Sequence record: SRR31156797_505
Length of the DNA stretch: 64,000 bases
Strand: one strand, 5' to 3'
The notes below the pieces were generated by a model. The model had not been told where the DNA came from. It searched no databases and worked only from the letters and a program-made list of their open reading frames with translations. Every line of letters starts with the position of its first letter. Position 1 is the first letter of the stretch. Shown here piece after piece: positions 14,870-37,689 of the stretch. Position numbers and translations under genes: made by a program.

Positions 14870-14881
14870 ATGGAGTATTTA

Positions 14882-17625: not shown

Positions 17626-17626
17626 T

Positions 17627-19251: not shown

Positions 19252-19915
19252 AGAGATAGCCAGCGCTATCATCGTTGATAGTCTCTTTGAGCAGGTCGAA
19301 AGTTTCGCCGTCTGAAAGTGAAACCCTGTGGAATAAATATGCCGCACGAAGCTCATTTTCACGCACAAATTCATTAAGCACGGCAAGCTTCTTATGTACT
19401 TTCATGAGTACAACTGAGGTGAAAGATTCGAGAACTTTTGCAAGCTCCTCTTTTGTCTCAGGCATCTCGATTACACAGAAATTCTCACCCTTCTCGCATA
19501 ATGGCAGCGCAACCTGATTAGCTCCGGCGGAGTATGCCGCAACACCTGGGATCATCTCCATTTCTATATCCTGATCGATCAGCTTATCTCGTAAGTAGTT
19601 GAACGTACTGAATATTGGGGTGTCTCCTATAGTGACGTATGCAACTTTTTTGCCGCTTTTGAGCATGTCGGCCATACTGTTTGCAAGGTCAGTGTAACGC
19701 ACATCAAGGTCGGCTTTTATACCTGTCATCGGGAAGAAGTACCAGTGTATTTTATCATCTTTGATGTAGTGTTTAACTATGTCGCCGGCGATGCTTCTGC
19801 CGGTTTTATCAGATTGAGGTACGACAACTATGTCAGCCTCTTCAAGAATCCTCACGGCTTTGACTGTTAAAAGCTCCGGATCGCCAGGTCCGAGCCCAAT
19901 TCCATAAATTTTCAT
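19229..19915 (-). CDS. cbiL: Precorrin-2/cobalt-factor II C20-methyltransferase
   Basis: GIGLGPGDPELLTVKA, FPMT, TIGDTPIFSTF, VVLMK. Confidence 0.9.
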   Translation of the reverse strand: MKIYGIGLGPGDPELLTVKAVRILEEADIVVVPQSDKTGRSIAGDIVKHYIKDDKIHWYFFPMTGIKADLDVRYTDLANSMADMLKSGKKVAYVTIGDTPIFSTFNYLRDKLIDQDIEMEMIPGVAAYSAGANQVALPLCEKGENFCVIEMPETKEELAKVLESFTSVVLMKVHKKLAVLNEFVRENELRAAYLFHRVSLSDGETFDLLKETINDDSAGYLSTAIVKK

Positions 19916-20003
19916 AACCACCTCGAACAGCTAATATAGAAAACCACTTGTGGTGTGTCCAGTTTTTTTATACCATAATTGTCATTAAAAGGCGGTTAGG
20001 TTA

Positions 20004-21443: not shown

Positions 21444-21892
21444 TTTCAAGATATCCACTGCTTATGAATATGCGTAAGAAGAGAGTGCTTTTTGTTGGCG
21501 GGGGCGCTGTTGCTGAGCGCAAAATACATTCCCTTATGATTTGTGACCCGGTAATTACAGTCCTTTCGCCGGAAGTTACAGATAAAATACAGACTTTAGC
21601 AAACCTCGGTGCGATAATTGTGACTACAGATTTCCCTGCGGAAGAGACTTTCGACTATGTTTTTATCGCTACTAATGAACGTGAAGTTAACGAAGAAGTT
21701 TACGATTTTTTCAAAGGTAAAGCTCTGATAAATATAGCGGACGACCCTGATAAGTGCGATTTTCATATGCCTGCTACTATAGTGAATAATGATGTGGTTG
21801 TCTCAGTTTCAACTGATGGGGCGGACCCTGCAAAGTCTAAGCGCATACGTGAGAAGCTTGAAGCTTGGATCGCTGACGGAGGGCTTGATTGA
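21440..21892 (+). CDS. sirC: Precorrin-2 dehydrogenase (CysG N-terminal/SirC-like)
   Basis: YPL, VGGGAVAERK, INIADDP..CDF, VSTDG; only 150 aa. Confidence 0.82.
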   Translation: MISRYPLLMNMRKKRVLFVGGGAVAERKIHSLMICDPVITVLSPEVTDKIQTLANLGAIIVTTDFPAEETFDYVFIATNEREVNEEVYDFFKGKALINIADDPDKCDFHMPATIVNNDVVVSVSTDGADPAKSKRIREKLEAWIADGGLD

Positions 21893-23157
21893 AAGGTTTT
21901 CTGATCGGTGCTGACAGGAGTGGCTCCGGTAAAACAACTATCACAACCGGGCTTGTGCACGCATTTGCTAGAAGAGGTAAAAAAGTCGCTCCATTTAAAT
22001 GCGGCCCTGACTATATAGATACTTTGCACCTCGGAAGAGCGGCAGGTTGCCCTGCGAATAACCTTGATACTGTTATGCTTTCTGAAAAAAGAGTGAAAGA
22101 AGTTTTTGCCCTTGGGGCTATTGGTGCTGATATATGTATAGCTGAGGGTGTGATGGGGCTTTTCGACGGTGTAAAGCCGGAGGGCTTTTACGGAAGCGCA
22201 CATCATGTGGCGAAAACAGTCGGTTTTCCAGTGGTTATGGTGTTGAATTGCGCTTCAACATCTTATTCTGTGGCGGCTACTCTCAAAGGTTTTCAGGCTA
22301 TGGCAGATGTTCCCGTAGCTGGCGTGATACTGAATAATGTAGCATCTGCGAATCACGAAAAGCTGCTTAAGGAAGCGGTTAAGATGCATACGGATATACC
22401 TGTTTTCGGCTGTGTACCGAGGCAGGGTGAGCTTTTAGGCTCCCGCTATTTAGGTATAAAAACAGCTTTTGAGGTGGATGAAAAATATTTTGGAAGATGT
22501 GCTGATCTTGTAAGTGATTACATAGATTTAGATGCTCTTACTGAGCTTGAGGTTGACGCTGAGACGGTTACTCAGCCTAAGCTTCCACAACCTGAAAAAG
22601 TTTGCTATGTAGCTTATGATAAAGCGTTTAATTTTTACTACGAGGCTAACCTTTATGAGCTTCAAAAGCGTGGGTTTGCTATCAAAAGATTTTCTCCTCT
22701 GGCAGATGAAACTGTCGATGGTGCTGATATGGTACTTCTCGGCGGCGGTTATCCTGAGCTTTACGCTAAGGAACTCGCAAATTGCAAAGAATTCCTCCGC
22801 TCAGTCAGGAGTTATGAAAAAACTATGCTTGCAGAGTGTGGCGGTATGATGGCTCTTACAAAAGGAATTCACACTGCTGATGGTTTTTACAAGATGGCTG
22901 GCGTTTTCGATGCGGAATGCCGTATGACGGAGAAGAGGCAGGCGCTCGGTTATGTGAAAGCTTCCGGCAAGTATGTCGGACATGAGTTTCACTACTCAAA
23001 GCTTGCAAATGTTAAGGAGCCTTATTACTTTCAGCTTGAAAAAATAACAAACGGACAGCTTACAAATGACGGTTTTCTGAAAGGGAAAATCTTTGCCGGA
23101 TATGCTCATTATCACTTTATGGGCGAACCTTCAATTTTAGATATGATACTGGAGTAA
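21889..23157 (+). CDS. cbiA: Cobyrinate a,c-diamide synthase
   Basis: SGSGKTT, FKCGPDYID, EGVMGLFDG, GGGYPE, AECGG, GHEFHYS. Confidence 0.95.
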   Translation: MKGFLIGADRSGSGKTTITTGLVHAFARRGKKVAPFKCGPDYIDTLHLGRAAGCPANNLDTVMLSEKRVKEVFALGAIGADICIAEGVMGLFDGVKPEGFYGSAHHVAKTVGFPVVMVLNCASTSYSVAATLKGFQAMADVPVAGVILNNVASANHEKLLKEAVKMHTDIPVFGCVPRQGELLGSRYLGIKTAFEVDEKYFGRCADLVSDYIDLDALTELEVDAETVTQPKLPQPEKVCYVAYDKAFNFYYEANLYELQKRGFAIKRFSPLADETVDGADMVLLGGGYPELYAKELANCKEFLRSVRSYEKTMLAECGGMMALTKGIHTADGFYKMAGVFDAECRMTEKRQALGYVKASGKYVGHEFHYSKLANVKEPYYFQLEKITNGQLTNDGFLKGKIFAGYAHYHFMGEPSILDMILE

Positions 23158-23160
23158 ACT

Positions 23161-23775
23161 ATGGATAAGGGACTAAAGATCGAAAGCGACAGCTTTGACA
23201 TTATAGATAATCTTGTGGATCTTTCGAAGTATGACGAGGGCGAGGCTCTCATAGTGAAGAAGCTTGTACATACTACTGGCGATCCGGAATTCGCTGAATT
23301 AGCAATACTTTCTGCTGAAGGCGTTGCTAAAGGTGTGCAAGCGCTTAAGGATAAAAAACCTGTAATTACTGATGTTACGATGGTGACAGCTGGCATCACA
23401 AAACGCTATCTGGACAAGACAGGTGTCGAGGTTTTATGCTTCATCAATCATCCTGATGTTTTGAAAATTGCTAAAGAGACAAACCAAACACGATCCGAGG
23501 TGGCTATGGTTTACGCCGCTGAAAAGTATCCTGATGCAGTCTATGCTATTGGTAATGCTCCCACAGCGCTGTTTAAAATTATCGAACTAACTCGTGAAGG
23601 TAAGGCGAATCCGTCATTCATAGCAGGACTTCCAGTAGGTTTTGTAAAAGCTGAAGAATCGAAAGATGAGTTAGCCGGAACCGACATCCCGCATGTTACA
23701 AATAAGGGAACGAAGGGCGGAAGCCCGTGTGCGGCGACAGTGATAAACGGTCTGCTTACGCTTGCTGCGGATTAA
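23161..23775 (+). CDS. cbiC: Cobalt-precorrin-8 methylmutase
   Basis: HTTGD, IGNAPTAL, PVGFV, KGGSP. Confidence 0.95.
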   Translation: MDKGLKIESDSFDIIDNLVDLSKYDEGEALIVKKLVHTTGDPEFAELAILSAEGVAKGVQALKDKKPVITDVTMVTAGITKRYLDKTGVEVLCFINHPDVLKIAKETNQTRSEVAMVYAAEKYPDAVYAIGNAPTALFKIIELTREGKANPSFIAGLPVGFVKAEESKDELAGTDIPHVTNKGTKGGSPCAATVINGLLTLAAD

Positions 23776-24442
23776 TGACGAGAACGTCTATCCCGCACTT
23801 TGCACAGGCTGAAATCTTTTCAGCATAGCCGCTCCCTTCGCCACTGTTTTTAGTGACCAGGCAGTCGATTTTCAGCTCTTTTATAAGTGCCAGATTGAAA
23901 TCCTCTGAGAAAGGACCCTGCATGCCTATGATTTTAGAATAGTGAAAACCTGCATCTGTACAAGCTTTTATAGATTTCTCAAATGCGAGTACACGGGCGT
24001 AGGAAACTTCTGCAACCGGGCTGAATTTATCTATATTATTCCCACCTGTGGTGATTAGCACAGATTCATAGTTATGCTTTATTATGTGCGTGACAGCGTC
24101 TTCGTAAGTGTAGAAGTGATGCATCTTTTCATATTTAATATCTTCAAGTTCACGAACTTCGTTTGTGTAGTCGATTCCTGTCAGCTTGCAAGCTTCCACT
24201 GCGACTTTGCTTATCTCGATGGCGTGCGGGTGGGTGGTGTCTATAACCTGCTCAATACTATTAAAACGGATAAATTTCGCAAGTTCCGTTACGGTAAATC
24301 GCTTTAGTGTAAGCTTTTTAGGGTAACGCTTAGAGAATTCATCCCGCCCGTATTCTGTGGCGACACTTATCATGAAATCGTCACTATTTAGCTGGCTTAT
24401 TATTTTGTGTGTTGTAGAGGTTCCGCCCAGTATCAGTATCAT
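23756..24442 (-). CDS. cbiJ: Cobalt-precorrin-6A reductase
   Basis: LILGGT, IDTTHPHA, MQGPFS, VTKNSG. Confidence 0.92.
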   Translation of the reverse strand: MILILGGTSTTHKIISQLNSDDFMISVATEYGRDEFSKRYPKKLTLKRFTVTELAKFIRFNSIEQVIDTTHPHAIEISKVAVEACKLTGIDYTNEVRELEDIKYEKMHHFYTYEDAVTHIIKHNYESVLITTGGNNIDKFSPVAEVSYARVLAFEKSIKACTDAGFHYSKIIGMQGPFSEDFNLALIKELKIDCLVTKNSGEGSGYAEKISACAKCGIDVLVINPQQA

Positions 24443-25176
24443 AAGCCGTATTTATCAACATAGCCTCTTGGTGAGACCAGTTTCCCGTCCTTTATAAAAG
24501 TTTTTGTCGCACCAATTATAACAACTGTGCTCATATCTATCTGCTCAAAATCCAGTTTACTTAGTGTTGTGACGTTGGTCTCCTGATTTTCCCTGTCGCA
24601 GTGTTTAACCCAACCGCAGGGCAGGTCGCCACGAGCCTCAATAAATTTTTCAACTGCATAAGGTAATTGAGTTGTGCGTTTTCTGCTTCTAGGGTTATAA
24701 ATAGCGCATACAAAATCGCCGAGATTAATAGCGTCGATACGTTTTTTGATAAGTTCCCAAGGGGTTAGAAGGTCGCTCATCGAGATTATCACCATGTCAT
24801 CTGATACAGGTGCGCCGAGCTTTGCGGATGCTGATAGAGCTGATGTTATGCCGGGGATGATCTCAACCTTGTCCACATCTGTTGAAAGTTCGTAAACAAG
24901 TGATGCCATAGAGTAAAGAGATGCATCGCCACCGCAGACAAGAGCGACATTACGCCCTGATTCGCATTCTGAGACAGCTTTTTGTACTCGTTCCATCTCA
25001 CCTGTCATGCCATTTGTAAATATTTCTGCTTGTGTTATTAGTCCGCTTATTTGTTTTACATACGGCTCATATCCACAGACGATATCTGCATTTTTTATAA
25101 CCTCTGCCGCTTTTGGTGAGGTTAGAGAGATGTCGCCCGGACCGTTGCCCACGACAAATAATTTTCCGTTATCCAT
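24439..25176 (-). CDS. cbiH: Cobalt-precorrin-3 C17-methyltransferase
   Basis: VVGNGPG, GGDASLYSMA, SMSDLLTPW, YNPRS, DMSTVVIIG, PRGY. Confidence 0.92.
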   Translation of the reverse strand: MDNGKLFVVGNGPGDISLTSPKAAEVIKNADIVCGYEPYVKQISGLITQAEIFTNGMTGEMERVQKAVSECESGRNVALVCGGDASLYSMASLVYELSTDVDKVEIIPGITSALSASAKLGAPVSDDMVIISMSDLLTPWELIKKRIDAINLGDFVCAIYNPRSRKRTTQLPYAVEKFIEARGDLPCGWVKHCDRENQETNVTTLSKLDFEQIDMSTVVIIGATKTFIKDGKLVSPRGYVDKYGL

Positions 25177-25942
25177 TACTAAGCACCTCTTTTATGACAG
25201 CTATGGTTACATCGCCGTATGTTTTTCTCTTCATAATTATTTCGGGGTTAGTAGCAGATAGAACCGCTGATGGTTCAGCCACTCCTGGTATGCCGAAGTG
25301 CTTCATCGGAGCGTCGTGTATATCAAATTTGTAATTATCATTTTTGAAGTAGCTTTCCGGCAGAAAGCGTAGGTAAACGTTTAACTCAGCCGAGGCATCT
25401 ATAATGCCCTGCTCGTCTTTTTTAACCCATGCGGATGTAAGCAGGCGAAGGTCGTCTATTGATATACTTGAATCTGAGCAGCCATTTTTGACCGCATCGA
25501 TTATAGCGTCTTTCTGTGTTCCTTTACGGCATCCGATTCCCATGATGTAGGTTCTGTTCGCCTCTGTAGCGGTGGTGATCACAGGGTCTGCGCCGGTTAT
25601 TGAGCTAACAATATGGGCGAGAATATTTGCACCACCTTCGTGACCGGATAGGGTGCTAATTGCGAATCGACCGACTTCATCACATGTGACAATAGCCGGA
25701 TCGGTATATTTTGATTTTATGTGTGGTGCGATCATGCGGGTGACTATCCCCTGCGCCATGATTGCTATGATATTCTGATATTTAACAAATAGCTCAGCGA
25801 AGCAGTCTTTGACAGAGCTGTAGTTTCCGCCGAGTTTTTCCGGATAATATAAATCTGATGGCATCTCAGTGTGCACCATCTTTGCAAGGTTCAGCCCCTT
25901 TTCTGTTACAGTGATTACAGCGGTCTTATTTCCTGTAGTCAT
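25169..25942 (-). CDS. cbiG: Cobalt-precorrin-5A hydrolase (compact form)
   Basis: DPAIV, LSGHEGGAN, VITTAT directly followed by GIGCRKG, GVAEPSA. Confidence 0.9.
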   Translation of the reverse strand: MTTGNKTAVITVTEKGLNLAKMVHTEMPSDLYYPEKLGGNYSSVKDCFAELFVKYQNIIAIMAQGIVTRMIAPHIKSKYTDPAIVTCDEVGRFAISTLSGHEGGANILAHIVSSITGADPVITTATEANRTYIMGIGCRKGTQKDAIIDAVKNGCSDSSISIDDLRLLTSAWVKKDEQGIIDASAELNVYLRFLPESYFKNDNYKFDIHDAPMKHFGIPGVAEPSAVLSATNPEIIMKRKTYGDVTIAVIKEVLSNG

Positions 25943-26684
25943 GGGAGAAGTCCTTGTCGTAAAGCTTACTGTATTTTTCTAATGTATCAGAGAGTGCTTT
26001 GCCTATTATGATGAGGGCGTGCTTATTTATGTCGGCTGTTTCGAACTGCTTGGCTATGTTCGCGAAAGTCCCTCTGAGGATTTTTTCATCCGCCCAGCTT
26101 GCACGGTAAACCACTGCTATAGGGGTGGTTTCTCCCCAGTTATTTGCTCGGAATCTATCGAGAACCTCGTCCAGCCTGTTTACTGATAGGTAAAATGCGA
26201 AAGTTCCGCCGTGCTTGGAGAGTTCTTCGATACGCTCGTTATCAGGCACAGGTGTGCGCCCTTCAATACGGCTAATGATGATGGTTTGCGATTGCTCCGG
26301 TGCGGTGAGCTCCGCCTGAAGAGCTGCCGCTGCGGCGAATAATGATGTCACACCAGGGATTATTTCGTAAGAAATATTAAGTTTATCAAGCTCTAACATC
26401 TGCTCTTTTATAGCGCCGTAAATGCACGGGTCGCCGGTGTGAAGTCGGGCAGTTTTATCGCCATTATCCGTACTTTTTTTAATGACTTCGATGATTTCAC
26501 CGAGATCCATCGAGGCGGAGTCGTAAATGTCCGCATCTTCTCTACAGTGAGTCAGTATATCTTTTGAGACAAGGCTGCCAGCGTAAATGACAGTTTTGCA
26601 CTCTTTTATCTTATTGACAGCTTTAAGAGTAATAAGCTCCGGGTCGCCTGGACCAGCCCCTATGATGTAAACGTCAGGCATCAT
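25926..26684 (-). CDS. cbiF: Cobalt-precorrin-4 C11-methyltransferase
   Basis: GAGPGDPELIT, YAGSLV, RLHTGDP, SKLYDKDFSH. Confidence 0.95.
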   Translation of the reverse strand: MMPDVYIIGAGPGDPELITLKAVNKIKECKTVIYAGSLVSKDILTHCREDADIYDSASMDLGEIIEVIKKSTDNGDKTARLHTGDPCIYGAIKEQMLELDKLNISYEIIPGVTSLFAAAAALQAELTAPEQSQTIIISRIEGRTPVPDNERIEELSKHGGTFAFYLSVNRLDEVLDRFRANNWGETTPIAVVYRASWADEKILRGTFANIAKQFETADINKHALIIIGKALSDTLEKYSKLYDKDFSHDYRK

Positions 26685-27294
26685 CTCTCCTGATCCCTAC
26701 TACAACAGCGATAGAGCTTCCATCCAGCTTATTAGTGTCAGAAACATTTTTTATCTCAGTTATCTGCTCACCATCCAGCCCGAGGTTTTCCATCACAAAA
26801 ATCTCGTGAGAATTGAGCGCGGTTTCTATGGTTTTAACCATCTCAGCCGCACGATTTTTATTATCACAAAGGATAAGGAAGCGGTGGTTCTGTTCGATGT
26901 TAACGAGCTCGTCGGTGGTTCGTCCGTGAACGGATACCAGCCTTGCATCCTGCCAAGGTTCACACAGCTTCGAAAAAGCGAGCTGAACTATGCTGACTCC
27001 GGGGATGACTTCCACCTTGCCTCTGCCGAACTCTTTCACAACAGATTTCGCGAGGCTGTAAAAACCTGCATCGCCTGTCACCATAACAGCTATCCGTTTT
27101 CCGTCGTGCTTTTTTATCAGGTCTATAGTGCCTTGAAGCAAGGTTTTCGGAACCTGAATGTTCTGCTCCGGGTAAAGCTCGAGAAATTTTTCAGAACCGA
27201 TAAGGACATCAGCCTTATAAAGTGCTTGTACTGCTTCCCATGTTAGGAGGTCAATCCCTCCGGGACCCATTGATACTACTTTGATATTAGCCAT
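26674..27294 (-). CDS. cbiE: Cobalt-precorrin-7 C5-methyltransferase (stand-alone)
   Basis: MGPG, TGDAGFYS, PGVSIVQ, SVHGR, ENLG. Confidence 0.88.
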   Translation of the reverse strand: MANIKVVSMGPGGIDLLTWEAVQALYKADVLIGSEKFLELYPEQNIQVPKTLLQGTIDLIKKHDGKRIAVMVTGDAGFYSLAKSVVKEFGRGKVEVIPGVSIVQLAFSKLCEPWQDARLVSVHGRTTDELVNIEQNHRFLILCDNKNRAAEMVKTIETALNSHEIFVMENLGLDGEQITEIKNVSDTNKLDGSSIAVVVGIRRDDA

Positions 27295-28264
27295 CGTAAT
27301 TACCTTTTAAGTTTCCAGCCATGTCGAAGAGGATAACCCTCACTTTGTTAAAGCTATAGGTCTTCATGATTTCAACAGAGATGGCTCCTGCCACCCTGTC
27401 AAGGTTTTCAACCTTTTCACAAATTTCTTCGACTGTATTGTAGCCGCCGCCAAGCTCTAATAACTCTGATATAAAATCCTGAGCCATTGGTGACTGCTTA
27501 GAGTGTGTATTATAATATCCCATTGCTATTTTGGCAAGCTTCCCCGGGTGTCCGGCTAAGGTGATCTTACGGATATTACGCCCAAGTGCGTGTTCCAGAG
27601 CGAATCCTACATAATTGCTCATTATCACCGTCTGAGTATCCGGCATCAGTTTATTAAGGTGCTTTTCGCCAATTTTACCCGGCACAAGATAAAGCTCCTC
27701 CGCTCCGCTTTCAGCCAGAACATCTATTTCACATGCGATAGTTGCTGTGATTGCTTCTATGCTCATCGGCTCGACTACGCCTGTTGTCCCTATGATAGAT
27801 ATTCCGCCTTTGATGCCTATGCGTGAGTTGAAAGTCTGCTCCGCAAGCTCCACACCCTTCGGTACGGATATTGTGACAACGCAGTCTTCTACTCCAGCAT
27901 TAGTAAGGTTCCTTTTTATCATCTCAAGAGGCACGGGGTTAATCGCCGGAGCACCAATAGGTATCTGAAGCCCTGCCTTGGTGACAACGCCTATCCCTTT
28001 GCCGCCTTTGACTATTATCCCGCCTGAGTTTTTCAGCTCTACCTTGGCGCATATCTCAGCACCGTGAGTAACATCCGGATCGTCGCCTGCATCTTTAATG
28101 ACAGTAGCGGATGATTCACTGCAAGCGTATACAGGTATGGTCGCACATGCACCCTCCGGCAGAAAAACTTCTACCTCTGCAGGTGCTTCCCCATTCGAAA
28201 GATATAGTGCGTGAGCCTTAGCTGCGGCTGATGCGCAGGTGCCCGTTGTGTACCCTTTTTTCAT
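27287..28264 (-). CDS. cbiD: Cobalt-precorrin-5B C1-methyltransferase
   Basis: GYTTGTCA, KDAGDDPDVTHG, PAINPVP, GGISIIGTTGVVEPMS. Confidence 0.95.
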   Translation of the reverse strand: MKKGYTTGTCASAAAKAHALYLSNGEAPAEVEVFLPEGACATIPVYACSESSATVIKDAGDDPDVTHGAEICAKVELKNSGGIIVKGGKGIGVVTKAGLQIPIGAPAINPVPLEMIKRNLTNAGVEDCVVTISVPKGVELAEQTFNSRIGIKGGISIIGTTGVVEPMSIEAITATIACEIDVLAESGAEELYLVPGKIGEKHLNKLMPDTQTVIMSNYVGFALEHALGRNIRKITLAGHPGKLAKIAMGYYNTHSKQSPMAQDFISELLELGGGYNTVEEICEKVENLDRVAGAISVEIMKTYSFNKVRVILFDMAGNLKGNYDG

Positions 28265-28340
28265 ATAACTAATACTGTTGCATTATTTTTTGAAGGTCAA
28301 GAATATTGTTGACTGAAACGGATATTTACGGTCTACTATA

Positions 28341-28510
28341 GCGAGGGTGTAGGCAAAATCAGGGAACTTGGTGAGAGTCCAAGACAGTCCCGCTACTGTA
28401 ACCGGAACGAAACTGCAACGCCACTGTTTGGGCATCTAAGCCGAAGCAAACGGGAAGGCGCAGAAGTAGGAAAGCGATCAATCGACGCCGGAAGTCAGGA
28501 TATCTGATTT
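28341..28510 (+). ncRNA. Cobalamin (AdoCbl-type) riboswitch
   Basis: AGGGAA-CTTGGTGAGAGTCCAAG-ACAGTCCCGCTACTGTAA, GCCACTG...CGGGAAGGC, B12 box AGTCAGGATATCT; 5' of cbiK. Boundaries approximate. Confidence 0.93.
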
Positions 28511-28596
28511 GCTGATAGACTTTACGAGGATAGAGGTTCCTGTTTCACCACAAAACTCTTAACTAAGTTCACCCATATTATTTTTTGGAGGTACTA

Positions 28597-29553
28597 ATGA
28601 GATTATTATCATTAGTTACATTGCTACTCCTTATGACAGGGGTGGTCTATGCATCAGGAGATTTCAAGATGGAAGAGAAAACTGCCATTGTTATCACAGC
28701 TTTTGGAACAACCTATGACAGAACACTTAAGTCGATCTTATCCATTGCCGAGGATGCGAAAGCGAAATATCCTAAGGCGGAAGTGAGGCTTGCATTCACG
28801 TCAAACATAATCAGGAAAATCTGGAATAGAAGAGCGGGCGAGCCTGACTACAGAGCTTCACACCCTAATGTTCCGGAGCAGCTTTATAAAGTTAAAAATG
28901 TACTAGGTGTTGTGGGTGATCTGCAAAACGAAGGGTACAGAAATATCATTGTGCAATCCTTACATGTGGCAAATGGTGAGGAGTACCACGACCTCGCATC
29001 GTATGTTAGAGGGCTTGCATCGATCAGAACATTTAAGCCGAAATTTCAGCCTTTTAATGCTATTGTGCTCGGTAAACCGCTGACAGGAACTATCAGCCAT
29101 GTAGAAGCCGTTGAGGCACTGGTAAAAGCGCTTGCTGATGATGTGGCTGAGGCTAAAAAAGCTGGTGCGGCACTGGTTTATATGGGACACGGTAATGAGC
29201 ATATGGCGCAGGGTGTTTACTATGAGCTTGAGCTTATGCTGAACCGGATGTACGGTACACCCGTTATGATCGGTCTTGTGGAAGGTCAACCGGATGTTGA
29301 TACTGTGCTTGATAAACTTAAACACGCAGGCACTAAAAAGGTGATCATCAGACCGCTTATGATAGTTGCTGGGGATCATGCTAATAACGATATGGCTGGT
29401 GATGAGGATGACGCATGGAAAGTGATTCTCACAAAAGCTGGCTATGACGTTACGCCTGTCCTTGAGGGGCTTGGTGATAAGAAAACAGTTAGAGATATCT
29501 TTATAAAACACATTGAGGAGGCGGCCGCAAGAGCGGACATTCCACTTAATTGA
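28597..29553 (+). CDS. cbiK: Sirohydrochlorin cobaltochelatase with signal peptide (periplasmic CbiK-type)
   Basis: AFGTT, AFTSNIIR, QSLHVANGEEY, MGHGNEH, MIVAGDHANNDMAG; N-terminus MRLLSLVTLLLLMTGVVYA; RBS GGAGG. Confidence 0.9.
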   Translation: MRLLSLVTLLLLMTGVVYASGDFKMEEKTAIVITAFGTTYDRTLKSILSIAEDAKAKYPKAEVRLAFTSNIIRKIWNRRAGEPDYRASHPNVPEQLYKVKNVLGVVGDLQNEGYRNIIVQSLHVANGEEYHDLASYVRGLASIRTFKPKFQPFNAIVLGKPLTGTISHVEAVEALVKALADDVAEAKKAGAALVYMGHGNEHMAQGVYYELELMLNRMYGTPVMIGLVEGQPDVDTVLDKLKHAGTKKVIIRPLMIVAGDHANNDMAGDEDDAWKVILTKAGYDVTPVLEGLGDKKTVRDIFIKHIEEAAARADIPLN

Positions 29554-30398
29554 AAGAGATAGAAGTAAAAAACCTGACTAAAAAATTTGGCGATGTTCCG
29601 GCTGTGGAGGATGTAAGCTTTACCGTAGAAACAGGCAGTATCCTTGCGTTCCTCGGTCCGAACGGAGCCGGGAAGACAACAACGGTGAATATGCTCACCG
29701 ACTTGCTCCAGCCGACGTCAGGTGAAATCTTCTATAGGGGTGAAAAGTTTACCTCAAAACGTGACGACCTGAAACGTGCAATAGGCGTTGTCCCACAGCA
29801 TAATAATGTCGATCGTGACCTTTCTGTTTATCAGAATTTAAGGGTGCATGGGATGCTTTTCGGCATGGGCAGGTTGGAGCTTGAAAGAAGGATAGAGGAG
29901 TCGATAGAGTTCGCAGGGCTTTCGGCACACGCCGGCAAAAAGGCGGGCAAGCTCTCAGGCGGGATGAAGCGCAGGCTGATAATAGCCAGGGCACTTCTGC
30001 ATGAACCGTCGATCCTTTTTCTGGATGAGCCGACGGTGGGGCTTGACGCATCTGTCAGGCGGACAATGTGGGACTTTATCAGAAATATAAATACGAATAA
30101 AAACTGCACAGTTTTTCTCACTACTCACTATATCGAAGAGGCTGAGTTGCTCTCTGACAACGTTATCGTCATCGACAGGGCGAAGATTGTTGCGGAGGGT
30201 AACGCTTCTTTGATGAAAGAGCAGATAGGAAAATGGGCACTTGATATATTAGTTGATGATATTACAGAAACAGAGTTTTTCGCCACTCGTGACGAAGCTC
30301 TCGCTAGGCTGGCTGAGACCAGCGAAACAGCAAAGCTACGCAAGACAAACCTTGAGGACGTTTACCTCTCCATTACAGGTCGGAGGATAGACGTATGA
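29550..30398 (+). CDS. ABC-2 type exporter ATP-binding subunit (NodI/DrrA-like)
   Basis: GPNGAGKTT, LSGGMKRR, LDEPTVGLD, LTTHYIEEAE, NLEDVYL. Confidence 0.9.
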   Translation: MKEIEVKNLTKKFGDVPAVEDVSFTVETGSILAFLGPNGAGKTTTVNMLTDLLQPTSGEIFYRGEKFTSKRDDLKRAIGVVPQHNNVDRDLSVYQNLRVHGMLFGMGRLELERRIEESIEFAGLSAHAGKKAGKLSGGMKRRLIIARALLHEPSILFLDEPTVGLDASVRRTMWDFIRNINTNKNCTVFLTTHYIEEAELLSDNVIVIDRAKIVAEGNASLMKEQIGKWALDILVDDITETEFFATRDEALARLAETSETAKLRKTNLEDVYLSITGRRIDV

Positions 30399-31138
30399 TG
30401 CTTAACGGCATAAAAGGTATATACTACAGAGAGTTTCTCGTTTTATACAGCAGACGCTGGAAGATACTTATGGCTTCTTCCATCTCGCCGTTACTGTTCC
30501 TTTTGGCTTTCGGCTACGGTGTCGGGCGTTTTAGCAATGTTGACGGCGTAGGTTATTTGGCGTTTCTAATACCGGGACTTATCGCCATGAGCAGCATGAA
30601 TCAGGCTTACGGCATATCCACCGAGATAAACATTTCACGTTTTTACTTTAAAGTTTTTGACGAATACCTGCTGGCTCCGATCAGGCGCTGGGAGATAGTC
30701 GTGGGCGAGATGTTATACGGTGTGACTAGGGGATTTATCCCAGTGGTCATCGTTGGGATATACGGCTTTGCGATTGGTGTGGAGCTGAATATTACGCCGC
30801 TATTTTTTATAAGCATGATTATGCATCTGTTCATATTTGCTCTCTTGGGGCTGATAGTTGCGCTGATGGTTAAGAATCACGGTGACCAGTTCGCTGTGAA
30901 TACATTTGTGATAACGCCGATGGTATTTCTGTCGGGGACTTTCTATCCTGTGGATAAGATGCCGCTTGTTGTGCAGTGGATAGCTAAGGCTTTTCCGCTT
31001 ACTTATTCCACAAAGTTAATCAGATATTCTCTCCTCGGTGGTGAGCTGAATGTCCTCGGGCATCTGGCTATACTGCTTGTGATATTCGCAGTTCTTTTCA
31101 CGTTTGCTTACAGAGTTGTGAGCAGGGTAGAGGCTTAG
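30395..31138 (+). CDS. ABC-2 type exporter permease (NodJ/DrrB-like)
   Basis: YLAFLIPGL, EYLLAP, PMVFLSGTFYP, FPLT; about 6 TM. Confidence 0.88.
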   Translation: MMLNGIKGIYYREFLVLYSRRWKILMASSISPLLFLLAFGYGVGRFSNVDGVGYLAFLIPGLIAMSSMNQAYGISTEINISRFYFKVFDEYLLAPIRRWEIVVGEMLYGVTRGFIPVVIVGIYGFAIGVELNITPLFFISMIMHLFIFALLGLIVALMVKNHGDQFAVNTFVITPMVFLSGTFYPVDKMPLVVQWIAKAFPLTYSTKLIRYSLLGGELNVLGHLAILLVIFAVLFTFAYRVVSRVEA

Positions 31139-31139
31139 T

Positions 31140-32090
31140 ATGAGGCTGGCAATAGCTCTTCTGTTGTGCGTAACCGTAGTTATTGCTGCGATGACCGGTT
31201 CGACAGAGATAAATATATTTGAGATGACCGAAGTGCAAAAAAATATCTTCTGGTCGATACGCATGCCTAGGGTACTTTTCGCCGCTGTGATAGGCGGGAT
31301 GCTAGGCGTCAGCGGTTCGGTTTATCAGCTTGTTCTGAAAAATCCTCTGGCGGACAGTTTTACCACCGGAGCGGCATCATCGTCGGCACTCGGCGCTGTT
31401 GTGGCTATTGCGCTCGGTTTCCCTGTGGCTCTTATTTCACCATGTGCGCTTGTTACAGGTCTTGGCGGTTTGATGATAGTCTATAAGCTCTCGTCTGTTA
31501 AGGGGCGTTTGATATCGCCTGTGACGATGATACTTGCAGGTGTTGTTTTGAATATTGTCGCCTCATCTGTGATAGGTTTCACTAAGTTTTATTTCGAAGA
31601 GTCATTATCCTCCATTGTCTTCTGGCTGATGGGTGGTTTTTTTATAGTTTCATATCAGAAGATTACAGCAGGCGTTACGGTTTTGCTTGTGGTTTACGCT
31701 TATTTTCATATGCGTTCCGGCAGGCTTAATCTACTTGCGATGGATGAATATTCCGCAGAGACATCAGGTGTAAACGTTCGTGTTGAACGTATGCTTGCGT
31801 TTGTTTTATCCACGCTTTTAGTTGCGGTGGCGGTTAGCTTCAGCGGGCTGATCGGATTTGTCGGCTTGATAGTTCCCCACGTTGCGAGAAGTTTTTTCGG
31901 CTCAGATATGAAGTTAAATATTTTTTATTCAGCTTTCATGGGTGCGATACTTCTTGTGGTTTCTGATGCGGTGGCTCGCAGTATCATCCCGGGCGGGACA
32001 GAGCTTCCCGTTGGGATAATTACAGCTATTCTGGGCGGTTTCTTCTTCCTTTATATGCTTAAGAAGCGGTCAAGGCAGGTGTGGTTATGA
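31140..32090 (+). CDS. FecCD/BtuC family import permease
   Basis: IRMPR, KNPLAD, GLIGFVGLIVPH, ELPVGIITA. Confidence 0.92.
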   Translation: MRLAIALLLCVTVVIAAMTGSTEINIFEMTEVQKNIFWSIRMPRVLFAAVIGGMLGVSGSVYQLVLKNPLADSFTTGAASSSALGAVVAIALGFPVALISPCALVTGLGGLMIVYKLSSVKGRLISPVTMILAGVVLNIVASSVIGFTKFYFEESLSSIVFWLMGGFFIVSYQKITAGVTVLLVVYAYFHMRSGRLNLLAMDEYSAETSGVNVRVERMLAFVLSTLLVAVAVSFSGLIGFVGLIVPHVARSFFGSDMKLNIFYSAFMGAILLVVSDAVARSIIPGGTELPVGIITAILGGFFFLYMLKKRSRQVWL

Positions 32091-32794
32091 TACACACAGG
32101 TCAGATAGATTTTAAACGTAGCGGCTTTCACTTAACTGTTGAGCCGTTTGAGATAAATCGTGGCGAAAAGGTCGCAATACTTGGCGAAAACGGATCGGGT
32201 AAGAGCACGCTTATGCACCTGCTTGTCGGTGTGCTGGGGAAGGCTGACGTGAGTTTTCAGGGGGAGAATCTTCAAAAGATGGGATACGGTGAGCGGGCGA
32301 GGATGTTTTCATTCCTTCCGCAATTGCCGGAGGTATCATTCCCGTTTACAGTTTTTGAGGTTGTCCGGTTCGGCAGATTTCAGCAGGGTGACGATGTTGA
32401 TGAACAAACAGAAAGAAGCTTGAAAGCTGCGGACATGTATCACCTGAAAGATAAAGCTTTCAACGAGCTGTCAGGCGGTGAGAAGCGCAGGGTGATGTTC
32501 GCCCGAGTGATAAATCAGGACACGCCGGTTCAGTTTTTGGATGAGCCGATATCCATGCTAGATATTCGTCATAAACTTGAGATTCTACAGCTTGTTACAG
32601 ACAGCGAAAAGACAGTCATCGTTTCTATACACGATGTAAATCTTGCGCTGGAATACTTTGACAGGCTTATATTTTTAAAAGACGGTAAATGCGTCGCCGA
32701 TCTGAGAAGGGAAGAGGTTGACGCTCAAATTATAACTGAGGTGTTTGATGTTAAAGTCAGTGGTACTGCTGGTAATTTTAAGTTTTACCTTTAG
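32087..32794 (+). CDS. Iron-chelate/cobalamin import ABC ATPase (BtuD-like)
   Basis: GENGSGKST, LSGGEKRR, LDEP, IHDVNLA; ATGA overlap with the permease. Confidence 0.9.
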   Translation: MIHTGQIDFKRSGFHLTVEPFEINRGEKVAILGENGSGKSTLMHLLVGVLGKADVSFQGENLQKMGYGERARMFSFLPQLPEVSFPFTVFEVVRFGRFQQGDDVDEQTERSLKAADMYHLKDKAFNELSGGEKRRVMFARVINQDTPVQFLDEPISMLDIRHKLEILQLVTDSEKTVIVSIHDVNLALEYFDRLIFLKDGKCVADLRREEVDAQIITEVFDVKVSGTAGNFKFYL

Positions 32795-33536
32795 TGCTTT
32801 TGCCGCTGAAAGGGTTATTTTGCTCGCTCCGGCCGCTGCTGATATCATGCAGAAACTCGGTTGTGAGGATAAGATCGTCGGCAAGACAAAAAGTGTGGAA
32901 GAGTTCCCAAAAGCCGTTAAGGTTGGGAGTCATATCCGCCCGAATATTGAGCTGATCATGTCGCTTAAACCTGATGTGATTGTCATACCTTCCAACCGTT
33001 TCTTTACTGAGGAGATGGTGAAAGAGGTTGGTGTGCCAGTGTTTCAGTATAATCCGTACACCCTTGATGAGATACTTATTGGTATCGCTGAGGTGGGTGA
33101 GCTGATGAATAAACAGGCTGAGGCTGAGAAGCTTATCGCCCATTTACGTTCCACGACAAATCAACTAAAAGAGGTGACTACCTCCCCCACGGTGCTGTTT
33201 GAGTCGATGCAGATACCTTACACAGTGGCAGGGGCTAAAAGTGTTGTGGCGGATATTATCAAAAAAGCTGGCGGTAATTTTGTGATAACAGACAAGCGGA
33301 AGATGGTGCGTTTCAATATGGAATCCACTGTTGCTATTAATCCTGATATTTATATTTATCAGGTTGGGCCTATGAATAAAAAGCCTGAACCGCCAAAGGA
33401 TAGGGCAGTTTTCAGGACGATGAAAGCAAAATATATAAAAGTTGATGAGAGAAAATTTTCAAGAGCGAACTCTATCTCTTTCGAGAATGTGTTGATGCTT
33501 AACGAGCTTTTTTCTCAGTTTAAGAGGGATAAATGA
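32748..33536 (+). CDS. BtuF-like periplasmic binding protein
   Basis: Signal peptide ending AFA-A, RVILLAP, PNIELIMSLKPD. Confidence 0.85.
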   Translation: MLKSVVLLVILSFTFSAFAAERVILLAPAAADIMQKLGCEDKIVGKTKSVEEFPKAVKVGSHIRPNIELIMSLKPDVIVIPSNRFFTEEMVKEVGVPVFQYNPYTLDEILIGIAEVGELMNKQAEAEKLIAHLRSTTNQLKEVTTSPTVLFESMQIPYTVAGAKSVVADIIKKAGGNFVITDKRKMVRFNMESTVAINPDIYIYQVGPMNKKPEPPKDRAVFRTMKAKYIKVDERKFSRANSISFENVLMLNELFSQFKRDK

Positions 33537-34240
33537 GAGAGTTAATAATAATCGGTGCTGGGCTTGGTGCTCAGTCTATCACCCTGCAAGGTGTGAACGA
33601 GCTTAAGCGAGCGGACGTTGTTCTCTACGACAGGCTCTCGCATCCGGACATACTTAAATACGCTGAGGGCGAGCTTGTTGAGGTGGGGAAAACTCCTTAT
33701 AAACATTGTATCCGCCAGAATGAAATAAATGATCTGATCAAAAAATACCTTAGTGAAGATAAGGTTGTCGCTAGGCTGAAAGGTGGCGACAGCACTGTTT
33801 TCGCTCGCTCCATCGAAGAGATTGAAGCTGCGGAAGATGCTGATGCACCAGTGAAAGTTATCCCAGGTGTTACATCTGCGGCGACGCTTTCGGCTAAGAT
33901 GAAGGCTGCTCTCACTGACAGGCGCACTGCCTCCGGTGTAGTCTTCATAACAGGTCATCCTAAAAACGGAACCATAGAGGATACTTATAACTGGAAAGCG
34001 CTTGCGTCCCTCAATCTGACTATTGTTATATATATGGGTGTGAAAAATTCGCCTAAGATTTCAGAGATGCTTATCTCCGGCGGGATGTCTGCGGATACTC
34101 CTGTTATGATTGGCGAAAAGCTTGAAACAGAAGGTGAGCGCCTCTTTGAATGCGATCTCAAAGGTTTAGCCGAGTTTATAGACGATAATGAAATAGAGAA
34201 TCCGGCGACTATTGTTATCGGGAAGATTGGTCATCCCTAG
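33533..34240 (+). CDS. cobA: Uroporphyrinogen-III C-methyltransferase
   Basis: IGAG, VLYDRL, RLKGGD, PGVTS, ITGH, YMG. Confidence 0.92.
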   Translation: MRELIIIGAGLGAQSITLQGVNELKRADVVLYDRLSHPDILKYAEGELVEVGKTPYKHCIRQNEINDLIKKYLSEDKVVARLKGGDSTVFARSIEEIEAAEDADAPVKVIPGVTSAATLSAKMKAALTDRRTASGVVFITGHPKNGTIEDTYNWKALASLNLTIVIYMGVKNSPKISEMLISGGMSADTPVMIGEKLETEGERLFECDLKGLAEFIDDNEIENPATIVIGKIGHP

Positions 34241-36599
34241 GGAACGACAGGGTGGTATTTAAGCCGTTATCATCCTTATGGTCGATATCGCCTTTTATCT
34301 GCTTTGTCAGTGATTTGATTACTGTGAAGCCCAGGCTTTTTCCAGTATGAATGTCATCGCTGTTCTCCAGCCCTTTACCATTGTCTTTTAGCCAGAAAAC
34401 ATACCTGTCGCCATATTCTTTCAAGCCGACTTCAATCTCTTTTTCAGGTTGTTCCGGATCAAAAGCATGTTTCATAGAGTTAGTGAATAGCTCAGTTGTG
34501 ATAAGCCCGATAGGGACTGCTTTGTCGATGGAAATGCTGAAATCGTCTATATCAGTTATAACTCTTATGTCTCCGTTTACAGTAAACATAGTTTTGAGGT
34601 CTAGCAGGAGCCTTTCGAGGTAAGATTTGATGCTGAGTGCATTTAGACCTTTTGTCTGATAGAGAAGCTCGTGGATGAGTGCCATAGACCTGATTCTGGC
34701 TATAGAGTCATTAAGATACTGCGCATGCTTTTTATCATCCATAGTGTCAATCTGGAGCGAGAGCAGGCTGCTTATTATCTGAAGATTATTTTTTACCCTG
34801 TGGTGGACTTCTCTCAGGAGTACACTGTTTTCATCAATCTGCTGAACCATTTTCTGCTCGTTGTGCAGCTCTTCCGTTATATCTCTGAAGATAACGATGC
34901 AGTTCTTTCTGCTGTTGTAATATTTAAGGTTGCTAAGTGTTATATCTATGGAGAAGACTGAGCCGTCTTTGTGCGCCATGAAGTCCCTGTAGTGTATAAA
35001 CTCCTCATCATTTTTAAGAAATTTCATTATAGGACAATTTTCTATGCCTATATGTCCTTCTTCAGAAGGGTGGTGAAGAATCATGTGCGGGTTTTGCCCT
35101 GTTAGCTCCTGTGCAGTGTATCCTAAAAGCTTTTGTGCGAATGCATTAACAAAAAATATCTCGCCCTTATCGTTAAGCCCCATTACACCCTCGTTAAGTG
35201 ATTCAAGTATGGCACTTTGCAGTGTTGAGATATTTCGAAGTTCTTTTTGGAAGTAAAGCTCACTGGTGATGTCAGAAAAGTTGATATACAGATATTTAAC
35301 ATTATCAAAGAAGAGCGGGGAGTAGCTTACCTGAACAGTTTTAATATTACCTCTTCTGTCGATTGTCTGAAACTTCTCCTGTCTGTCGCCTGTATTACTA
35401 ACGTGCCAGAAATATTCCGACTCACGCTTAGTGATGAAAAGGTTATCAATCTTCATAGAGCGCAGTTCATTTATGTCATATTTATAGAAGTCTCTCAGTG
35501 GGTTATTAGCGTCTACTATGGTTCCAGTCTCTGCATTTACGAGCATTTGCATAGATATTGATTTCTGGAAAATAGCTTCGTACCAGTCTTGCCTGTCAAC
35601 TAAAGTATCAAATGCTAATACGTCTTTTGTGACATCTTTTATATATCCTATGGTCTGTTCTATAGATTCATCGAGACCGTAATAGTTAGTGTAGGAGTAC
35701 TCAAGTATAAGGTCTTTGCCGGATTTTGCTTTTGATTCGTGTGTGTTTATGCCAAACTTATGCGGTGGTGCTGTCTGGTGCTCAGCTTGCATCTTAACCA
35801 GGAAATTTTTGAAAAACCTCTCCTGAAGTTCTTCATACTTAAGTATTTCAGCAATGTTATAGCCTGTAATTTTCTCAACAGCAGGGTTCAGGTATTTTAA
35901 TGTCATTTTCGAACCGTAGCTTACTATAAAGATGATATCGTCTGATACTTCTGCTATACGCCTGAAGTTGATCTCACGCTCTTTGATGTCTTTTTTAACT
36001 TTTTCAAAATGGAGAAGTATTATCCCTGATGCAGAAGTTAGTGTAAGAAGGACTGCAATGTGATATCCGAGCGGCTCAAACCACTCTATATTCGCCAGGA
36101 AGGGGTAATCAATCTTTTGTATACCCCAGATAACTATCGAAGTTCCGGCGAGTCTGCCTCCCAAACTGAATTTTCTTGTATGTTTGAAGATCTGGTAACC
36201 CGACATGATAAATACAATAGCTGTTAATGTTTGAAAATATAGCTCAGTAAGGTGCAGCGGAACATGACCGAAATATATGATAATGCCCATCATAATAGCC
36301 AGAGAAATTAGCCTTGTTACTGTTTGAGTTTTTCTGCTGGATACGAAATTTAAAGCACCTATAAGAAGGAAATACCCGCTGATAAACTCCGCTAGCAAGT
36401 GAACAAAAGGCGAATGTATACTCACAGGGTTTAGTGTATGGAGTAGATCTATCGAAAGGATGAAAGAGAAACAGAGCCAGCTTAAACACCAGTATATGAG
36501 ATAGGTTTTCCTCTCGATAGCGTACAGTATTACGAACATTATCGAGAATATTACCGAAGCAGTAAGGATTGATGTGATGTCGTAAACTATATCGTACAT
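34215..36599 (-). CDS. Multi-TM PAS histidine kinase (HisKA_2/HWE-related)
   Basis: About 7 N-terminal TM segments, three PAS domains, EVHHRVKNNLQ, ELFTNSMKHAF, DNGKG, SLG. Confidence 0.9.
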   Translation of the reverse strand: MYDIVYDITSILTASVIFSIMFVILYAIERKTYLIYWCLSWLCFSFILSIDLLHTLNPVSIHSPFVHLLAEFISGYFLLIGALNFVSSRKTQTVTRLISLAIMMGIIIYFGHVPLHLTELYFQTLTAIVFIMSGYQIFKHTRKFSLGGRLAGTSIVIWGIQKIDYPFLANIEWFEPLGYHIAVLLTLTSASGIILLHFEKVKKDIKEREINFRRIAEVSDDIIFIVSYGSKMTLKYLNPAVEKITGYNIAEILKYEELQERFFKNFLVKMQAEHQTAPPHKFGINTHESKAKSGKDLILEYSYTNYYGLDESIEQTIGYIKDVTKDVLAFDTLVDRQDWYEAIFQKSISMQMLVNAETGTIVDANNPLRDFYKYDINELRSMKIDNLFITKRESEYFWHVSNTGDRQEKFQTIDRRGNIKTVQVSYSPLFFDNVKYLYINFSDITSELYFQKELRNISTLQSAILESLNEGVMGLNDKGEIFFVNAFAQKLLGYTAQELTGQNPHMILHHPSEEGHIGIENCPIMKFLKNDEEFIHYRDFMAHKDGSVFSIDITLSNLKYYNSRKNCIVIFRDITEELHNEQKMVQQIDENSVLLREVHHRVKNNLQIISSLLSLQIDTMDDKKHAQYLNDSIARIRSMALIHELLYQTKGLNALSIKSYLERLLLDLKTMFTVNGDIRVITDIDDFSISIDKAVPIGLITTELFTNSMKHAFDPEQPEKEIEVGLKEYGDRYVFWLKDNGKGLENSDDIHTGKSLGFTVIKSLTKQIKGDIDHKDDNGLNTTLSFPRDDQSSR

Positions 36600-36609
36600 G
36601 ATTACCTTA

Positions 36610-37689
36610 TTAATGTTTCATACAGAACTGTGTGATAGCCATAGGGATGTCTGTGAGCGACATTATCCTGTCTACTCCGCCGTGCTCAATAGCAACTTTT
36701 GGCATACCGAATACTACACTGCTCTTTTCGTCCTGAGCGAAATTATATGCGCCGGCATCTTTCATCTCTTTCATACCACGTGCTCCGTCATCGCCCATGC
36801 CGGTGAGGATAACCCCCACAGCATTTTTACCGACATATCTGGCACCTGAGCGGAAGAGGACATCGACAGACGGTCTGTGTCTGCTGACAAGTGGTCCTTC
36901 TTTCGTTTCAACAAAATACCTAGCACCGCTTCGCTTGATGAGCAGGTGCTTATTGCCGGGCGCAAGCAGAACTCTGCCTGGGAGAACTGTGTCGCCGAAG
37001 TCCGCCTGTTTGACAGAGAGCGCACAAAGGTCATTTAACCTCTGAGCGAACGACAGAGTAAAATTCTCAGGCATGTGCTGAACAATGACAACACCCGGGC
37101 TGTTTTGCGGGAGACCCTGTAGAAAAACAGTCAGAGCCTCTGTCCCACCTGTTGATGCACCTACTAAGATTACTTTTTCAGTGGTCTTAAGCATAGCGTC
37201 TGATGTTGGTTTCGATGATGCGATAACAGCGTCCGCTGTGAGCTTAGGCTGTACTTTGTATATACTTTCAGATAATTTTTTCGGTTTAACTTTTGCGGCA
37301 CCTTTCACAGCATCGCAGATGATGACCTTCGACTCTTCGAGGAATGTTTTCGTTCCTACTTTCGGTTTTTGTATGATGTCTACTGCGCCATATTCCATGG
37401 CTTTCAAGGCTGTCTCAGAGTTTGATTCTGTGAGAGTTGAGCACATTACAACGGGGATGGGGTGCTGTGTCATTATTTTTCTGAGGAATGTTATGCCGTC
37501 CATCTTCGGCATTTCAACATCAAGGGTTATTACATCCGGTATGAATGTTTTCATCTTTTCAGCTGCAGCAAAAGGGTCGCTACAGCATACTATTTCACCT
37601 ATGTCTTTATCGCTAGCGAGAACATCGTGCATAGTCTGCCTGACTACGGCTGAGTCGTCGACTACCATTACTTTTAATTTTTCGCTCAT
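36610..37689 (-). CDS. cheB: Chemotaxis response regulator methylesterase
   Basis: REC plus [25 protein letters not shown]. Confidence 0.96.

Follow-up and report, generated by a model that had tools for sequence, protein, structure and literature searches.

The window analysed here is the whole of a 64,000-nucleotide stretch from sequence record SRR31156797_505, and its point of interest is an operon for anaerobic cobalamin (B12) synthesis that opens with the chelatase gene cbiK. A cobalamin riboswitch aptamer at 28314–28525 on the + strand (RF00174, 71.8 bits against a gathering threshold of 31.5, full model 1–189; the sole Rfam match within the window) is followed, on the same strand, by genes in the order cbiK, ABC-2 (ATP-binding cassette) ATPase, ABC-2 permease, FecCD permease, importer ATPase, binding protein and cobA. 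The genes overlap or abut at six of the seven junctions, so that translational coupling across the operon is plausible. An earlier note on this DNA had described the same anatomy (riboswitch, exported-type CbiK, ABC-2 pair, FecCD/BtuCDF-like importer, CobA), and matches in Rfam, Pfam and NCBIfam bear it out. What we add is that cbiK itself appears to possess two translational starts, one giving an exported and the other a cytoplasmic chelatase.

The cbiK open reading frame (ORF), as listed, opens at a TTG and occupies 28585–29553 (+). Its product matches PF06180 at 250.2 bits (profile positions 2–261 of 262) and is predicted to be a class II sirohydrochlorin cobaltochelatase. It does not reach the NCBIfam equivalog NF047852 (186.6 bits against a cut-off of 400), and it appears to be of a diverged subfamily, having an insertion relative to the solved proteins 2xvx and 1qgo. 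The closest named protein is from Denitrovibrio acetiphilus (74% identity), and relatives in the PDB are the periplasmic CbiK of Desulfovibrio vulgaris (2xvx, 9e-42), CbiK of Salmonella (1qgo, 1.6e-39) and FetB (9b86). The MGHG and AGDHA motifs, reported as intact from a first reading of the sequence, are so, and they align with the metal-binding histidines of 2xvx and 1qgo; the histidines concerned (H174 and H237, in the GHG and GDH motifs) are invariant in 40/40 aligned CbiK orthologues.

Where might translation of cbiK begin? An ATG at 28597, 5 nt downstream of a Shine–Dalgarno (SD) sequence GGAGG (28587–28591), would give a long form of 318 aa (28597–29553, +) with a predicted signal peptide ahead of the PF06180 domain. 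The N-terminus so encoded (28597–28653), MRLLSLVTLLLLMTGVVYA/SGDFK, is likely to be a Sec-like leader, as judged by eye from its n-h-c pattern and from a hydropathy maximum of 2.9 over 10 residues. In frame and 24 codons further on, behind the signal peptide, a second ATG at 28669 has an SD sequence of its own (AGGAG, 28656–28660, 8 nt upstream), and from it we predict a short, leaderless form of 294 aa (28669–29553, +) that begins MEEKTAIV. Both starts carry an SD motif within 4–12 nt, the sequence pattern by which we recognised a candidate dual start. The N-terminus of the predicted short product, MEEKTAIVITAFGTT, resembles those of natural leaderless CbiKs, and one database gene call (P0003, 294 aa) opens at the same motif. 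RNA folding is weaker near the internal start than across the body of the gene (mean percentile 0.24, compared with 0.5 expected). Some bacterial genes are known to have two in-frame starts whose products differ in location or function; cbiK is like them in that each start has its SD sequence and the shorter product lacks the targeting segment, here as read from sequence alone.

Statements about whole genomes rest on relatives of the source organism (68 Deferribacterota genomes and a sample of 151 Desulfuromonadales), and CbiK starts were compared from loci extracted by tblastn anchoring. GGAG or GAGG lies 4–12 nt before a post-signal in-frame ATG in 20/20 Deferribacterota orthologues (19 genomes and the window gene: 17 distinct sequences tested together, and three more), compared with a background of 189/3105 (6.1%) among internal in-frame ATGs of the same loci. 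The residues that encode the internal SD sequence vary (SGD, SED, GGE, TGV, SGV, AAE, ASE), and the GGAG falls in differing codon phases among the orthologues. Among Desulfuromonadales, 10 exported CbiK orthologues (46–52% identical) retain a methionine behind the leader, with GGAG or GAGG in seven and AGGA in one more. The case for a dual start would rest on an ATG and SD sequence kept across a deep clade in which the linker varies, not on repeated independent origins.

Several observations tell against this interpretation. Three of the 10 Desulfuromonadales genes with the methionine have neither GGAG nor GAGG; synonymous resampling, with the protein held fixed, gives an SD core in 2–52% of trials per gene; and half of the exported CbiKs that have no such methionine (7/14) possess GGAG or GAGG at some point within the linker of 54 nt. 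Because resampling and these methionine-less linkers also yield the core, the SD signal is a moderate one. The post-leader methionine represents roughly one change on the CbiK tree. Its association with being the sole chelatase (Fisher test, 27/5 against 1/10, p=1.5e-5) is uncorrected for kinship, and a kinship-aware test of the same association had three pairs and no power. Some genomes do not fit: four Deferribacterota with the distant type of CbiK described below (G039, G040, G041 and G067) have a sole exported CbiK together with CbiD and no post-signal SD and ATG, the same pairing of a sole exported CbiK with CbiD occurs in G142 and G219 of the Desulfuromonadales, without the post-leader methionine, and G198 retains the methionine despite having a second CbiK. 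In G092 the methionine is merely four codons ahead of the CbiK core.

Does a second gene supply the cytoplasm with a chelatase? In the 64-kb window, tblastn with CbiM, CbiN, CbiQ, NikMN, CobN, ChlID, small CbiX and CbiK found just cbiK and generic ABC ATPases, so the earlier note was correct that no other chelatase or CbiMNQO is encoded there. Among the 68 Deferribacterota genomes, 38 have a PF06180 match, exactly one each: 19 are leader-bearing orthologues of the window gene, five are of a distant type (about 27% identical; leader present in 4/4 examined of the five), eight are leaderless and six are weak cross-hits on small CbiX. In every genome of the orthologue group (19/19) the exported CbiK is the only CbiK/CbiX-type match, PF01903 (CbiX) matches falling inside cbiK itself; CbiD is likewise present in 19/19. 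The exported gene is thus the sole class II chelatase of a complete pathway. CobN was considered as the missing chelatase and rejected as a general answer, as it occurs in 3/68 genomes (G002, G034 and G050), two of them among the 19. In Desulfuromonadales, genes with the post-leader methionine are sole chelatases in 8/10 cases, with CbiD in 10/10 genomes; for the methionine-less genes, two genomes are without CbiD, one has a second CbiK and four have CbiX. Thirteen Desulfobacterota loci have exported CbiKs without a methionine behind the leader, and a second CbiK match was found in 9/10 of those genomes searched, often a few kilobases downstream. (A Desulfovibrio metagenome-assembled genome has a third CbiK-like gene, at L094, G074:C7:11519-15283, in which the chelatase core is preceded by a long N-terminal stretch rich in histidine, with H and D residues in a run.) What the earlier note saw in the window, no CbiK or CbiX besides the one with a signal peptide, extends to 19/19 relatives; the premise that a cytoplasmic chelatase is missing is probably false, because an SD sequence and ATG are conserved behind the signal peptide.

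The converse suspicion would be that the signal peptide is an annotation artefact, the internal ATG alone being used and CbiK being cytoplasmic. Database gene calls P0003, P0069, P0094 and P0116 do indeed start at the internal methionine. However, in 37/37 exported-type rows the upstream frame stays open and encodes a hydrophobic stretch with a basic N-terminal end, in spite of strong divergence, and throughout the orthologues of the window gene's own clade the leader region stays open and hydrophobic though its sequences differ; the upstream start has its own GGAG or GAGG at 4–12 nt in 15/17 orthologues; and where the leader is lost, the neighbouring transporters change as well. We consider an artefact of this kind very improbable.

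That coincidence emerges from the CbiK tree (72 rows, quick IQ-TREE search; 16 rows without the anchor motif, and rows of <240 aa, were left out). A clade of seven leaderless CbiKs, Pelovirga-, Chrysiogenes- and Desulfurispira-like, is nested in the clade having both the methionine and the SD sequence (Shimodaira–Hasegawa-like approximate likelihood ratio support, SH-aLRT, 99 and 98), and the leaderless CbiKs of G011 and G012 are placed beside a second Deferribacterota group. From this nesting, it seems that leaderless, evidently cytoplasmic enzymes arose from the exported type, as would be expected if the internal start already worked. In the leaderless sister lineages the operon is riboswitch-cbiM-cbiN-cbiQ-cbiO-cobT-cbiK-cobA. 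One operon slot thus takes either CbiMNQO, when CbiK is leaderless, or the ABC-2 pair and importer, when CbiK is exported. Nothing argues more strongly than this exchange for a role of the exported module in supplying cobalt or corrinoid.

The first of the two transporters begins within cbiK, the ATPase start overlapping the cbiK stop. The ATPase (29550–30398, +; PF00005, 122.7 bits) is DrrA/NodI-like, scoring 271 bits against TIGR01188, under the cut-off of 312, and the permease (30395–31138, +) matches PF01061 at 98.4 bits and has no sequence match in the PDB. An ABC2_membrane permease with an ATPase of the DrrA/NodI class is the composition of an ABC-2 exporter, the direction of transport being predicted. 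Orthologues of the permease (E <1e-60) occur in 26/68 Deferribacterota genomes, comprising 24/24 of those with exported CbiK and 0/8 of those with leaderless CbiK, and in 13/151 Desulfuromonadales genomes, in 12/13 of them within 4 kb of an exported cbiK. The pair is therefore conserved with exported cbiK in two phyla, as a functional connection of the kind first suggested for this locus would lead one to expect.

The arrangement is not uniform. Six genomes have the window's order (cbiK-ABC2-importer-cobA); in six others the ABC-2 pair is divergent from cbiA-cbiK-importer-cobA; in seven, cbiK-cobA stands alone, and the ABC-2 pair and importer make up an operon of five genes elsewhere, without linkage to cbiK; and the distant CbiK type is found in the window's gene order. 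The stand-alone operon (L095-L101, for example L096:7730-11761) comprises ABC-2 ATPase, ABC-2 permease, FecCD permease, ATPase and binding protein, keeping exporter-type and importer-type ABC systems together as one unit; at L096, the sole stand-alone locus annotated, its flanks are housekeeping genes (thymidylate synthase, dihydrofolate reductase and TerC). The ABC-2 pair is also present in two genomes, G021 and G050, in which neither CbiK nor CbiD was matched. In G050 (L103, G050:C2:18000-37999) genes for a ChlI/D-like protein, CobN (1281 aa), a TonB-dependent receptor and a FecCD-type importer lie in a row, with the ABC-2 pair about 3 kb beyond, behind a DNA methylase gene.

The second transporter is of import type. 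It consists of a FecCD/BtuC-like permease (31140–32090, +; PF01032, 248.8 bits), an ATPase (32081–32794, +; PF00005, with the heme ABC ATPase family NF010068 the best NCBIfam match at 186.5 bits, under its cut-off of 261) and a periplasmic substrate-binding protein with a predicted signal peptide (32745–33536, +; PF01497, Peripla_BP_2, 85 bits). All three are below the BtuCDF equivalog cut-offs (BtuC 197 against 461, BtuD 101 against 281, BtuF 45.5 against 234 bits), so that the assignment holds at the level of the superfamilies FecCD and Peripla_BP_2. The nearest solved relatives of the binding protein are the heme-binding IsdE (8e-14) and then B12-binding proteins (from 7e-9). Its subfamily is a tight one (about 95 proteins at E<=1e-50, the next matches falling to 1e-27) and is found in the same taxa as exported CbiK, several Vibrio and Photobacterium species included. 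In these last, orthologues of exported CbiK, some in two copies, and of the binding protein are on the same large contigs (P0047, P0082, P0099, P0102, P0114, P0118; P0162, P0180, P0181, P0187, P0188). A complex prediction for mature CbiK with the binding protein (alignments A1 and A2) scored 0.00 and is uninformative either way.

The closest known parallel is the CbiK(P) of D. vulgaris (2xvx), an exported class II chelatase, as the window's CbiK is predicted to be, adjoining a FecCD-type importer behind a cobalamin riboswitch, with its metal-binding histidines kept and a histidine at chain position 96. His96 and His103 of 2xvx are reportedly heme-binding residues. The window's CbiK has a histidine at the equivalent of position 96 and an arginine, not histidine, at 103; the His96 equivalent is not kept among the orthologues, whose consensus there is GEEYxDL. 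The gene context differs more. Desulfovibrio-type loci have a separate leaderless cbiK a few kilobases downstream, for the cytoplasmic paralogue CbiK(C), and no ABC-2 pair, whereas the window has a single cbiK with an internal SD and ATG, and an ABC-2 pair besides; at least two CbiKs are present in 9/10 Desulfobacterota genomes, and one in 19/19 relatives of the window. The arrangement is thus a variation on the Desulfovibrio CbiK(P)/BtuCDF theme to which the ABC-2 pair and an internal start have been added. As for the function of the prototype, a recent study describes the physiological role of CbiK(P) as not settled genetically (PMC11568245, 2024).

Given such a parallel, could the operon be an ordinary mixture, with an importer for corrinoid salvage, a CbiK that binds heme or metal as CbiK(P) does, an unrelated ABC-2 pair, and cobalt entering by unspecific routes? 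A B12 element precedes cbiK-cbiL and btuCDF in Desulfovibrio (Rodionov 2004; PMC545781), and the Sulfurospirillum cobamide cluster contains cbiK-btuCDF (PMC7755780). That the solved relatives include periplasmic 2xvx and heme-binding FetB, that a histidine stands at the His96 position, and that in seven genomes the ABC-2 and importer operon is apart from cbiK (with housekeeping flanks at the one such locus annotated) would all suit this explanation. It leaves unexplained, however, why the ABC-2 pair goes with exported cbiK in 24/24 and 12/13 genomes, and why leader loss brings a switch from the module to cbiMNQO, and both the lack of conservation of His96 and the arginine at 103 speak against heme binding of the CbiK(P) kind. 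We regard such a mixture as a doubtful account of the locus.

Other parallels are more distant. CbiK of Salmonella is of the same family, shares the catalytic histidines (1qgo) and the pathway context (cbiL, and cbiH through cbiD), but it is classically leaderless and fed with cobalt by the CbiMNQO importer; the window has no cbiMNQO, and in two relatives the CbiM homologues are nickel-type. Chelatase-like heme proteins of Porphyromonas and Bacteroides (FetB/IhtB, and the CobN-like HmuS/BtuS) are encoded with TonB receptors and FecCD importers. The window's operon is like these systems (FetB being 9b86) in coding for an exported protein of CbiK or CobN fold along with a tetrapyrrole-type importer, and the ChlID-CobN-TonB receptor-importer row near the ABC-2 pair of G050 also resembles them. 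To our knowledge, their hosts do not synthesise the tetrapyrrole; in this they differ from the window, where cobA is part of the operon, within a complete cbi cluster.

How, then, does cobalt reach the pathway? CbiM matches are present in all 19 genomes of the orthologue group, located away from cbi genes. At the two such loci annotated, the homologues are nickel-type (2/2): at L104:4971-8015 nikR, a fused M/N protein of 360 aa, Q and O (nikR-nikMN-Q-O), and at L106:3715-6950 M, a NikL-family subunit, Q and O (M-NikL-Q-O). None of the four CbiM loci scanned in relatives has a cobalamin riboswitch (0/4). By comparison, one was found in 8/15 of the relatives' cbiK loci scanned, directly 5' of the exported cbiK in seven of the eight (L031, L033, L034, L037, L039, L040 and L041) and 5' of a leaderless cbiK operon in the other (L045). 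Twelve cobalamin riboswitches were located in five related genomes, five of them at cbiK; the other seven precede ORFs identified from their N-terminal sequence alone (L139, L141, L142, L143, L145, L150 and L144), five NrdD-like, one MetE-like and one a putative outer-membrane receptor. No B12-regulated cobalt importer was thus found among the four CbiM loci or the riboswitches of the five genomes. A NiCoT permease was considered as cobalt importer and rejected, NicO matches being weak and partial and present in 9/68 genomes (6/24 of those with exported CbiK). In the window, no terminator-like site was found between riboswitch and cbiK start (28525 to 28597), and as a check for an expression platform the fold of 28480–28700 was no better than that of shuffled sequences (z = -0.03).

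With a signal-peptide CbiK as the only visible chelatase, the earlier note had proposed a cobalt-capture shuttle, in which the ABC-2 pair exports sirohydrochlorin or precorrin-2, CbiK loads it with cobalt and the importer retrieves the product, the pathway intermediate acting as a cobaltophore. Much of what the proposal assumed about the relatives has stood: 19/19 pathway-bearing genomes have the exported CbiK as their sole chelatase, no second CbiK or CbiX was found, CbiM is nickel-type where annotated (adjoining nikR or NikL, 2/2), NicO matches are weak or partial, no B12-regulated cobalt importer turned up, and in two phyla the ABC-2 pair and exported cbiK are linked. The slot exchange with cbiMNQO, the nesting of the leaderless clade in the exported one, and a binding protein nearest to heme and B12 binders would all be in keeping with it, as would 4 to 6 more genomes having a sole exported CbiK and no internal start. 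What did not stand is its necessity, for if the conserved internal SD and ATG yield a cytoplasmic form, a periplasmic shuttle is not required. Against it, too, are the ABC-2 pair in G021 and G050 without CbiK or CbiD match, the seven genomes in which the ABC-2 and importer operon is unlinked to cbiK, and Desulfovibrio-type loci, which pair exported CbiK with an importer and have no ABC-2 pair. A review of cobalt and B12 (PMC7689651) gives no precedent in its passages on the periplasm, and it mentions neither CbiKP nor Desulfovibrio. A shuttle could coexist with a second start, but on balance we think it unlikely.

We prefer, at about an even chance of being right, the reading in which cbiK has two starts, from which come both a cytoplasmic CbiK that serves the pathway and an exported one that acts together with the two transporters. 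The sequences themselves establish the anatomy, its conservation across two phyla and the co-occurrence of the genes; use of both starts, export and any cargo are inferred from these. The operon would then be where a Deferribacterota bacterium regulates entry into anaerobic B12 synthesis, the riboswitch permitting expression at low B12; CobA would yield precorrin-2, which SirC of the adjoining cluster would oxidise, and CbiK would insert cobalt. Translation from ATG 28597 would give a pre-protein exported via Sec, and translation from ATG 28669, with its own AGGAG, the leaderless cytoplasmic enzyme for the pathway and perhaps for siroheme synthesis too. The exported CbiK, the ABC-2 pair and the BtuCDF-like importer may act in the periplasm as one module, with a metal-tetrapyrrole or corrinoid as its substrate; as this module holds the operon position that cbiMNQO has in sister lineages, it most likely helps to supply cobalt or corrinoid. 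A bolder version may be conceived, in which exported CbiK, ABC-2 pair and importer are a cobalt-acquisition system that replaces CbiMNQO, the internal start preserving a cytoplasmic copy, and is common to Deferribacterota and Desulfuromonadales; a tetrapyrrole precursor of B12 would go out to the periplasm, receive cobalt and return. We hold this version only tentatively and would sooner expect it to be wrong.

The surroundings of the operon agree with a role in B12 synthesis. Its last gene, cobA (33533–34240, +), for uroporphyrinogen-III C-methyltransferase, is above both NCBIfam cut-offs for CobA/SUMT (NF004790, 222.8 against 198; TIGR01469, 212.2 against 185). Adjoining the riboswitch on its other side is a near-complete anaerobic cobalamin cluster (14369–28264), recognised from NCBIfam matches, most of them above cut-offs: cobU, cobT, cobS, cobD, cbiB, cbiR, cbiL, cobQ and sirC, and further cbiA, cbiC, cbiJ, cbiH, cbiG, cbiF, cbiE and cbiD, with the section from cbiD to cbiJ (23756–28264) divergent from the riboswitch. 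The sirC ORF (21440–21892; precorrin-2 dehydrogenase of the CysG N-terminal type) is just 150 aa long and covers profile positions 1–145 of 205. The cluster includes a homologue of cbiR, the cobamide remodelling phosphodiesterase (18586–19251; 156.8 bits against a cut-off of 105). Beyond cobA, an ORF for a membrane-anchored, sensor kinase-like protein of 794 aa (34215–36599, -) converges on it and overlaps its final 26 bases, and is followed by cheB (36610–37689, -).

In the open-access literature we found, among the matches listed, no report of a dual start in cbiK, of a link between CbiK and an ABC-2 system, or of periplasmic or exported sirohydrochlorin. By what route anaerobes without CbiMNQO bring cobalt to the corrin ring has been a question since at least 2004, when delta-proteobacteria bearing cbiK were described as being without known cobalt transporters (PMC545781). 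Two leads bear on it, and a cultured relative, Denitrovibrio acetiphilus, is at hand for both. One is that a single gene may serve two compartments by means of a second start. The other is that a conserved pair of exporter and importer accompanies exported CbiK and takes the place of a cobalt importer. Either of these, if true, would alter the recognition of B12 producers from their genomes, for a CbiK annotated as 'periplasmic' would no longer signify a missing step.

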